From Escherichia phage vB_EcoM_JNE01: a stretch of DNA of 64,000 nucleotides. Position 1 is the stretch's first letter. Each line of letters opens with the position of its first letter. Location: the sequence record OR670491; one strand, given 5' to 3'. This document shows positions 56,226-57,896 of the stretch, one piece after another. The notes beneath the pieces are model-generated. The model was not told where the DNA came from, searched no databases, and saw nothing but the letters and a program-made list of their open reading frames with translations. Both the position numbers and the translations under genes were made by a program.

Positions 56226-56671
56226 ACCTAAATGTATCTAAAGAGTTTTTCGATGATGTCAAAGAATCTTTCTTACAATTAAACGAGAATAGTCGTTTAG
56301 ATCCTGAAATCAAAGAGGTTGTTCTTCGTTGGCAGAAGAGTCCTTTATTAGATAAAATTGTTCCTAGATGGAGTTGTCAGGGTCACAGTGATACACATAG
56401 TGATTCTGATTATTACATTATTTTCTGTACACAAGACGATGGTGCTGATATTCTATATGATATTTTTGACGAGTTTTGTAGTCTTGAACATAACTGTGCA
56501 GGGTGGAACTACAGTGTTATTAAGTTGATTCACCAGAATCACAAAAAGGCAGAACCGCACATTGAAATTGGGAGATACTCCGAAGGTCACCAAGAGACTA
56601 TAAACTATATGAAGGCTTTATGGCTCGCCAAATTACAGGAGATTGAGGATAATCATGAGCAATACAAATAA
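56222..56671 (+). CDS. hypothetical protein (149 aa)
   Basis: ORF. Confidence 0.45.
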   Translation: MNLNVSKEFFDDVKESFLQLNENSRLDPEIKEVVLRWQKSPLLDKIVPRWSCQGHSDTHSDSDYYIIFCTQDDGADILYDIFDEFCSLEHNCAGWNYSVIKLIHQNHKKAEPHIEIGRYSEGHQETINYMKALWLAKLQEIEDNHEQYK

Positions 56672-57896
56672 ATTTCTTGAACAAACAATCGTCAAGCACT
56701 TGGCTGGCTCACAGGCATACGGAACCAGTACACCACAAAGTGATACCGATTATCGTGGTATCTTTTTGGCAAACAAAGAGTTCATTATGACTCCTTTTTA
56801 TCGAGTCAAGGAAGTATCTGATGTAAATGAAGAAGATACGAAATTCTATGAACTAAATCAGTACTTACAATTGTATACTGAAGCTAACCCGAACATTCTG
56901 GAATCACTGTGGGTTGACCCTGAACACATCGTAGAAAGTACTGAGATTTATGATTATCTCCGTAGCTTCAACCGTGATCTTCTTAGTTCTAAGATTGCAT
57001 TCTCTTACACTGGTTATGCATACAATCAGGTAAAACGCATGTCAAACCATCACGGTTGGATTGGTAAAGAACAAGTGGCAGAACGACGCTTACGTGAAAT
57101 CTTCACAGAGCACCCAACTAATGAAGTTGTGGATTGGATGTACGCGTATTTCCCTGATTATGTTGTGGAGCGTGTTGTAGAAGAAGATAAGGTACAAGAC
57201 CGTAAAGATGTAGTTGATTTCGACAAATACATGCGAGATACTTCCTTACAACTTATCAGTACTGTTCCTTTGGCACAACATCACTTTGTTCGTTTAGTTC
57301 ATAACTATCTACCACAAAAAGTACTGGACCGTGACTTTAGTCTAGCTAACTTCAATCATGGATACGAGTTAATTCACTACGGTGATAATATCTTTGCAGT
57401 TATTCCTAACGTTAATACTAAAACTATTAGTGTAAACAATGATCTAGTATGGGATAGTACAAAAGAACGTACACCAGAAGAACTAAAGATTACTCCTGCA
57501 CTAATTGTTAAATTCAATCGTAAAGAGTATGAAGAAAACAATGAAGGTCGCAAGAACTATCACAAGTGGAAAGAGAACCGTAATGCGAAGCGTGCAATTT
57601 TAGAATCAAAACACGGATACGACAGTAAACATGCTATGCATACAATTCGTCTTTTGAATACAGCAGAAGAAGCATTACTTACTGGTGAAGTTCTTGTAAA
57701 ACGTCCTGATGCTGATATGCTTATGGATATTCGCAACGGTAAGTGGACTTATGAAGAAGTTATGGAGTACTTCAACGATAAGGTTGACTATATTCGTAAT
57801 GTGGTTTACAAGAAGTCAGTACTACCGAAGAAGCCAAATATTGAATTAGCATCTAAAGTACTAATCGATATTCGAGAAATGCAGTGGTATAAGTAA
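56655..57896 (+). CDS. predicted nucleotidyltransferase (Pol-beta superfamily)
   Basis: N-terminal HLAGSQAYGTSTPQSDTDYRGIF (GS-x(n)-DxD). Confidence 0.55.
   Translation: MSNTNKFLEQTIVKHLAGSQAYGTSTPQSDTDYRGIFLANKEFIMTPFYRVKEVSDVNEEDTKFYELNQYLQLYTEANPNILESLWVDPEHIVESTEIYDYLRSFNRDLLSSKIAFSYTGYAYNQVKRMSNHHGWIGKEQVAERRLREIFTEHPTNEVVDWMYAYFPDYVVERVVEEDKVQDRKDVVDFDKYMRDTSLQLISTVPLAQHHFVRLVHNYLPQKVLDRDFSLANFNHGYELIHYGDNIFAVIPNVNTKTISVNNDLVWDSTKERTPEELKITPALIVKFNRKEYEENNEGRKNYHKWKENRNAKRAILESKHGYDSKHAMHTIRLLNTAEEALLTGEVLVKRPDADMLMDIRNGKWTYEEVMEYFNDKVDYIRNVVYKKSVLPKKPNIELASKVLIDIREMQWYK

Follow-up and report, generated by a model that had tools for sequence, protein, structure and literature searches.

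A long-form RlaP-family nucleotidyltransferase of Escherichia phage vB_EcoM_JNE01 and its candidate role in tRNA repair

The gene, its family and its active site

The 64,000-nucleotide stretch of Escherichia phage vB_EcoM_JNE01 DNA analysed here (sequence record OR670491; in the following the window) carries on its plus strand, at positions 56655 to 57896, a real and intact gene for a long-form Pol-beta nucleotidyltransferase of the RlaP family. The uninterrupted open reading frame (ORF) extends from 56643 to 57896 and encodes 417 amino acids if started at TTG; from ATG 56655, it encodes 413 amino acids followed by the stop codon that ends at 57896. This ATG is the likely start of the gene, because a Shine-Dalgarno-like GAGGA, read from the sequence (plus strand, 56645 to 56649), sits 5 nucleotides before it. 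GAGGA is located within the 3' end of the upstream ORF 56222 to 56671, which shares 17 nucleotides with the start of the RlaP gene.

That the gene product belongs to the RlaP family (PF10127, 'RNA repair pathway DNA polymerase beta family') is close to certain. The Pfam match reaches 58.8 bits (E 8.9e-16; gathering cut-off 23), is partial in that profile positions 25-144 of 249 pair with residues 16-133, and involves the sole Pfam family found at E values up to 1, while PHROG 388 'nucleotidyltransferase' covers residues 4-412 (E 2.2e-75). The 227 related clusters retrieved from the protein database had all been labelled PF10127 beforehand, and tblastn matches were found in 577 phage records, including Vequintavirinae, Erwinia and Vibrio phages and Lak megaphages, with NrdC.11 of T4-like phages reached via the N-terminal domain only. 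No NCBIfam model matched the protein. The assignment to the minimal Pol-beta-type nucleotidyltransferases, as given in an original prediction made from the sequence letters alone, is correct, as is its description of a 413-amino acid protein with an N-terminal GS-x(n)-D-x-D signature; its 'unknown substrate' was, given membership in PF10127, too cautious, although an RNA repair-associated, RlaP-like enzyme had been listed among the candidates.

The N-terminal sequence HLAGSQAYGTSTPQSDTDYRGIF contains the signature as G18-S19-x10-D30-x-D32 (plus strand, 56706 to 56750), a match far beyond chance. In an alignment of 38 sequences with homologues down to 40% identity (A1), G18, S19, D30, D32, D61 and E66 are invariant, as are, towards the C-terminus, W305, K306, R309, N310, R313, E317, D323, K325, H329, R332, R350, D352 and R360. 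Upon addition of distant RlaPs of 21-33% identity (A2), G18, S19, D30, D32 and D61 are still invariant. The counterparts in the canonical RlaP set (A6) are an invariant glycine, with serine or alanine at the serine position, the aspartates D43/D45 and, for D61 (plus strand, 56835 to 56837), D76. As they are invariant even with RlaPs of such low identity, D30/D32/D61 is predicted to be the catalytic triad of an intact active site, with D61 as the third carboxylate; loss of the active-site aspartates on alignment, which the original prediction had named as its own refutation, is not what the alignments display.

Over the surrounding 5 kb, identity amounts to 96.4% with Escherichia phage Turkey5 (351 kb) and to about 76% with further Asteriusvirus jumbo phages such as PBECO4 and 121Q. 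The Turkey5 orthologue, 99% identical, is annotated as 'hypothetical protein', the 121Q orthologue bears the generic label 'nucleotidyltransferase', and the PBECO4 orthologue gp066, also a 'nucleotidyltransferase', occupies the same place, with small ORFs before and tail-fibre/tail genes after it.

Domain architecture and fold

The protein consists of an N-terminal Pol-beta nucleotidyltransferase domain delimited by Pfam, BLASTP and hhalign (residues 1-133; 56655 to 57053), an insertion of about 170 amino acids without counterpart in the canonical 250-amino acid RlaPs (residues 134-303; 57054 to 57563) and a C-terminal helical HEPN/KNTase_C-like domain (residues 304-413; 57564 to 57893), all encoded on the plus strand. 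In BLASTP, residues 2-133 align with residues 9-148 of a 253-amino acid RlaP from a Bacillus thuringiensis plasmid (E 2e-13) and residues 304-406 with its residues 145-246 (42% identity, E 9e-21), so that residues 134-303 remain unaligned to a protein whose own matched segments are contiguous. The 253-amino acid protein itself covers RlaP profile positions 19-249, and by way of it the C-terminal domain can be linked, transitively, as a homolog to full-length family members. In profile–profile comparison by hhalign with 19 canonical RlaPs of about 250-290 amino acids, a probability of 97.9% is reached for the N-terminal domain only, and the alignment to the canonical tandem-partner set stops short of the C-terminal domain; the C-terminal domains have diverged too far for hhalign. 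A helix with the pattern K-x3-[H/Y]-x2-R is, though, recognisable in the C-terminal domain of the phage protein and in those of canonical RlaPs.

The insertion can be divided further. Residues 141-204 (57075 to 57266) form a helical insert which, within A1, is confined to jumbo-phage members, and residues of about 205-303 form a beta-rich subdomain common to phage and bacterial long forms of about 350 amino acids. PHROG 388 proteins of Vequintavirinae and of marine or metagenomic myoviruses as well as the bacterial long forms align over their full length with 33-47% identity, possessing the beta subdomain and the C-terminal domain, but not the 64-amino acid helical insert. This dissection of the domains, that is the 170-amino acid insertion and its jumbo phage-specific helical part, together with the partner repair enzymes encoded in the same window, is what is new here.

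A confident AlphaFold2 model with a mean predicted local distance difference test score (pLDDT) of 90.9 and a predicted template modelling score (pTM) of 0.82 displays a nucleotidyltransferase domain followed by a helical C-terminal domain. Sequence searches of a PDB set that did not include the PfRlaP crystal structure gave no similar chain, neither with the single protein nor with the 38-sequence profile, and Foldseek against the PDB, equally without an RlaP chain, gave no match below E 0.05. The top Foldseek matches, all marginal, are KNTase, HalB, AAD(9), MNT and LinB, and kanamycin, lincosamide and aminoglycoside nucleotidyltransferases and MNT-HEPN pairs share the general layout in which a HEPN-like four-helix bundle comes after the nucleotidyltransferase or forms a pair with it. 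The modelled fold pattern is that of a minimal nucleotidyltransferase to which a HEPN/KNTase_C-like bundle is fused. In A1 there is no conserved HEPN motif Rx4-6H; position H320 varies, and the pattern that is conserved reads K325-x3-H329-x2-R332. A fold search of BFVD recovered exclusively phage 'nucleotidyltransferases' of 230-340 amino acids. Their alignments run over about 410 columns, roughly the entire query, which would fit an insertion in the phage RlaP.

Repair partners, surroundings and neighbourhoods in relatives

Two further genes on the plus strand of the window encode enzymes of RNA repair. At 15903 to 17045 a T4-type RNA ligase 1 (Rnl1; RNA_lig_T4_1 4e-16, T4_Rnl1_C 9.4e-15) with the motif I KLDG is about 36% identical to T2/T4 RnlA, and at 18141 to 19085 a polynucleotide kinase-phosphatase (Pnkp; HAD_PNKP 1.4e-42, AAA_33 8.8e-13) contains the P-loop GLPGCGKT and the HAD motif DIDGT. 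Rnl1 is the likely sealing partner and Pnkp the likely end-healing partner of RlaP. The gap of about 1 kb between the two genes holds an ORF of 104 amino acids without a Pfam domain match.

The immediate neighbours of the RlaP gene are small ORFs assigned to PHROGs of unknown function, situated between two sets of large tail-fibre-like/tail genes. RlaP is the last gene of this block, in which the ORFs of 54216 to 56671 match no Pfam domain and only PHROGs of unknown function, and thus give no hint as to what RlaP does. Three successive ORFs at 54216 to 55824 (198, 178 and 166 amino acids) belong to the related PHROGs 18641 and 7868; those of 198 and 178 amino acids are paralogues (36% identity over 52 residues), and the same array is present in PBECO4 and 121Q. 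Both 121Q and PBECO4 lack, at this place, the ORF directly upstream of RlaP (56222 to 56671; 149 amino acids, without a Pfam domain); it is found immediately 5' of RlaP in a viral contig of 345,809 bp (L011) and elsewhere in another (L012). In a pattern scan, a promoter-like site with full sigma-70 consensus (TTGACA-17-TATAAT, 12/12) was detected on the plus strand at 54029 to 54057, within the 3' end of a gene encoding 908 amino acids, and a terminator-like hairpin with a T-run at 54205 to 54226 directly precedes the block of small ORFs. The putative promoter suggests that 54216 to 57896 might be transcribed early by the host RNA polymerase, separately from the tail genes. Neither tRNA genes nor a second RlaP, the latter sought since bacterial relatives occur in pairs, were found in the window.

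Upstream, 48157 to 50856 and 51473 to 54199 encode paralogous proteins of about 900 amino acids, both of PHROG 3573, and an ORF of 195 amino acids between them (50869 to 51456, PHROG 26864) resembles their C-terminal part of about 115 residues; probably, they make up fibres or whiskers. That RlaP itself is structural or acts in the tail was considered on account of its position among tail-fibre-like genes and of T4 Rnl1, which moonlights in tail-fibre attachment, but was rejected, as the active site is intact and invariant and the homolog does not lie among tail genes in other phage groups. Still further upstream, an accessory cluster (22371 to 39655) comprises calcineurin-like phosphoesterases (22371 to 23114 and 26703 to 27494), an ATP-dependent DNA ligase (25266 to 26684), ClpP-like proteases (28365 to 29060 and, as a weak match, 32030 to 32692), a Sir2-family protein (34903 to 35670), a PIN-PhoH fusion (36889 to 38328) and a protein in which a CapR-homology repeat occurs three times (38375 to 39655). 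The ORF of 600 amino acids at 45465 to 47267 is about 95% identical to a region of 121Q which is annotated as NrdD in PBECO4, and is adjacent to a small-subunit ORF (47582 to 48052) about 9 kb upstream of RlaP. On the B. thuringiensis plasmid pAM65-52-3-235K (L002) a short RlaP lies downstream of nrdI-nrdE-nrdF and thioredoxin, and the name of the T4 member, nrdC.11, can be compared; such linkage of nrd genes and RlaP may be coincidental synteny.

Among relatives, 78 viral contigs with a homolog and 80 bacterial loci were surveyed (handles beginning with L designate individual loci). As judged by tblastn, a CCA-adding enzyme is encoded within 10 kb in eight of the viral contigs (adjacent in L028 and L058), Pnkp in two (adjacent in L070) and Rnl1 in two; Rnl1 lies at most 4 kb from the homolog in L082 and L083, and a CCA-adding enzyme directly adjoins it in L028, L058, L087 and L162. 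In Vequintavirinae, the RlaP gene is located 3 kb downstream of the CCA enzyme. Within the 80 bacterial loci, RtcB is encoded within about 3.5 kb in three and a CCA enzyme is adjacent in two; loci with RtcB at this distance from a homolog are L004, L090, L130 and L154, RtcR is a neighbour once, and on a Deferribacter megaplasmid RtcB is found four genes upstream. Linkage to enzymes acting on RNA ends is recurrent and phylogenetically independent, yet a minority pattern.

In bacteria, the long form usually stands in tandem with a canonical RlaP of about 250-290 amino acids, often overlapping it, as in Myxococcota, Planctomycetota, Abditibacteriota and on a Hymenobacter plasmid. Of 53 immediate neighbours on the same strand, 19 are such partners, and roughly 35 of the 80 bacterial loci have the tandem (examples are L096, L106, L109, L110, L115, L123, L140, L144-L146, L150-L152, L154, L161, L164, L165 and L003:1645-3556); the pairing suggests a system of two RlaPs or a heterodimer. 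Phages, in contrast, carry the long form without a canonical partner, and the window has, accordingly, one RlaP. In L058 (9980-11807), RlaP is split at the boundary between nucleotidyltransferase domain and insertion into an N-domain ORF of 173 amino acids and a C-part ORF of 225 amino acids, between which an ORF of 211 amino acids encodes a GIY-YIG-type homing endonuclease. Split genes also occur in L068 and in Pectobacterium phage DU_PP_IV; the halves may work as separate polypeptides.

A candidate role in tRNA repair

RlaP owes its name to linkage with RNA ligases (PMC7824862, PMC12776372), and comparative genomics has described it as the most prevalent repair nucleotidyltransferase of jumbo phages, with a distribution mirroring that of RNA ligases (Iyer et al. 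2021; PMC7824862). In a bioRxiv preprint of December 2025, two RlaPs from Pseudomonas, PfRlaP and PaRlaP, have been characterised, including a crystal structure of PfRlaP with a two-domain layout (PMC12776372). Among E. coli macromolecules these enzymes label RNA only, proteins not being substrates; they transfer one or two nucleoside monophosphates or deoxynucleoside monophosphates (NMPs or dNMPs) onto RNA 3'-OH ends, do not accept DNA as acceptor and prefer Mn2+ (PMC12776372). In a nicked-tRNA mimic, the 3' end of the 5' half is favoured over the acceptor end, and aminoacylation of repaired tRNA short of one anticodon-loop nucleotide is improved; RlaP was proposed as an antidote to 'smart' ribotoxins such as RloC, which cut and then excise a nucleotide (PMC12776372). 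T4 NrdC.11 is a family member placed in cluster 5 of the sequence similarity network, apart from the characterised enzymes (PMC12776372).

The phage protein shares with PfRlaP and PaRlaP the Pfam family, the G-S...D-x-D...D site, the succession of a nucleotidyltransferase and a helical domain with a basic helix K-x3-[H/Y]-x2-R and a genome that also encodes RNA end-healing and sealing enzymes. It differs in size, with 413 against about 250-290 amino acids owing to the insertion between the domains, in the location of its gene outside any rtcB-rlaP-rtcA operon and in the type of the ligase, which is of the 5'-phosphate type (Rnl1) and not RtcB. T4 NrdC.11 and its orthologues, for instance in RB16, are likewise PF10127 members of genomes with Pnkp/Rnl1 repair and not adjacent to these genes, and the N-terminal domain and the C-terminal helix motif align; identity, however, is 21%, tblastn extends over the first 150 residues or so, and the middle region is unlike.

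What is directly established for the phage protein is that it belongs to the family, that its active site is intact, how its domains are arranged and that its genome encodes the partner enzymes. On this basis, and because of the distant characterised relatives, the published comparative genomics and the partner enzymes that this genome also encodes, we favour, with a probability of roughly 0.6, that RlaP attaches one or two nucleotides untemplated to RNA 3'-OH ends and serves tRNA repair together with Pnkp and Rnl1. By analogy with the published work (PMC12776372, PMC7824862), an RNA substrate, the addition of one or two nucleotides and the tRNA-repair role are most likely. Two divalent metal ions would be coordinated by D30, D32 and D61, and a nucleoside triphosphate and the 3'-OH end of the RNA would sit in the cleft that separates the nucleotidyltransferase domain from the basic helical domain at the C-terminus, for template-independent addition of one or two nucleotides. 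Once a host anticodon nuclease of the RloC type has cut a tRNA and trimmed a nucleotide, Pnkp would heal the ends, RlaP would replace the missing nucleotide or nucleotides and Rnl1 would reseal the tRNA.

Several points weigh against this role. Rnl1 and Pnkp are encoded 38-40 kb upstream of the RlaP gene, which is not part of a repair operon, and in a Pfam census of 105 non-redundant viral neighbour proteins UvsW/ResIII (nine), gp32 (nine) and RecA (six) lead, with fewer PolyA_pol proteins (four) and AAA_33 Pnkp-type kinases (four, two of them with HAD_PNKP). The characterised RlaPs, which do not include a phage member such as T4 NrdC.11, are distant, the profile–profile match to canonical RlaPs is restricted to the N-terminal domain, and the phage protein has the additional 170-amino acid insertion. 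The biochemical source is moreover a preprint, in which the in vivo role is itself a proposal (PMC12776372).

If RNA 3' ends are the substrate, the purpose could still be another one, such as patching of tRNA 3'-CCA ends together with a CCA enzyme or tailing of host or phage RNA which alters its stability. The CCA-adding enzyme is the commonest RNA-related neighbour in relatives, Asteriusviruses encode seven tRNAs and a CCA enzyme (PMC11895373), and full-length tRNA and rRNA, too, are labelled by the Pseudomonas RlaPs (PMC12776372). The preference of these RlaPs for the 3' end of the 5' tRNA half over the acceptor end (PMC12776372), the fact that non-specific addition at the CCA end would stop aminoacylation and the absence of a CCA enzyme from the scanned parts of the window make such a use unlikely. 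RlaP itself is not of the CCA-adding or polyA-polymerase type that the original prediction had included, as PolyA_pol (PF01743) is not matched and CCA enzymes are separate genes in related phages. Action on DNA ends or single-stranded DNA in phage replication, recombination or repair is less probable still, and is kept in consideration mainly because of the replication-module neighbourhood (UvsW, gp32, UvsX/RecA) in marine T4-like relatives. This neighbourhood is, however, common to many accessory early genes and not kept in Asteriusvirus, Vequintavirinae or bacteria; the classification of a homolog under DNA repair in an Asteriusvirus genome paper is an annotation by name only; and although a Pseudomonas RlaP accepts deoxyadenosine triphosphate as donor, DNA is not an acceptor for the characterised enzymes (PMC12776372).

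Synthesis of free oligonucleotides or cyclic nucleotides which disturb host immune signalling, for instance by an enzyme that makes oligodeoxyadenylate as HalB does and so prevents a Hailong-type channel from opening, seems rather remote. HalB (PDB 9dbh/9dbj) figures among the marginal fold matches, but has no detectable sequence similarity to the phage RlaP and is itself a tetrameric protein of 217 amino acids with a tyrosine-primed oligo-dA product. The role in defence signalling voiced in the original prediction finds no support, since no SMODS/CD-NTase Pfam family is matched, PADLOC returned a single noise match to an unrelated 86-residue model (E 0.04) and the comparison to CD-NTases yielded nothing beyond the CdnC and CdnD chains at Foldseek E values of 0.89-1.6 and template modelling scores of 0.09-0.13. 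In its broadest form, this alternative would have the long-form RlaPs as a functionally distinct branch, marked by the beta insertion, paired in bacteria and, in jumbo phages, alone and with the extra helical insert, of which the phage enzyme would make or extend short oligonucleotides like HalB, the solved structure closest to it in fold, and manipulate nucleotide-gated host defence instead of repairing tRNA; we regard this, too, as a long shot. Nucleotidylylation of small molecules or proteins, as by aminoglycoside and lincosamide nucleotidyltransferases, MNT antitoxins or DrrA-type AMPylators, is least likely of all despite the shared fold pattern, as there is no Pfam match to those families, the conserved HEPN motif is lacking, modification of antibiotics is of no evident use to a phage and E. 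coli proteins are not RlaP substrates (PMC12776372).

With tRNA repair as the favoured role, RlaP is most likely an ordinary part of the counter-defence kit of jumbo phages and not a new signalling enzyme. The family, its occurrence in jumbo phages and the proposed role have already been published, so that nothing here is conceptually new; yet a specific annotation can replace 'hypothetical protein' in Turkey5 and the generic 'nucleotidyltransferase' in PBECO4 and 121Q. The tRNA-repair toolkit of an Asteriusvirus-type coliphage would be filled in as well, with Pnkp to heal, RlaP to restore nucleotides and Rnl1 to seal. If this is true, phages with all three enzymes should resist nucleotide-excising nucleases such as RloC, against which kinase and ligase alone would be insufficient, and presence of the three genes would be useful in predicting phage host range.

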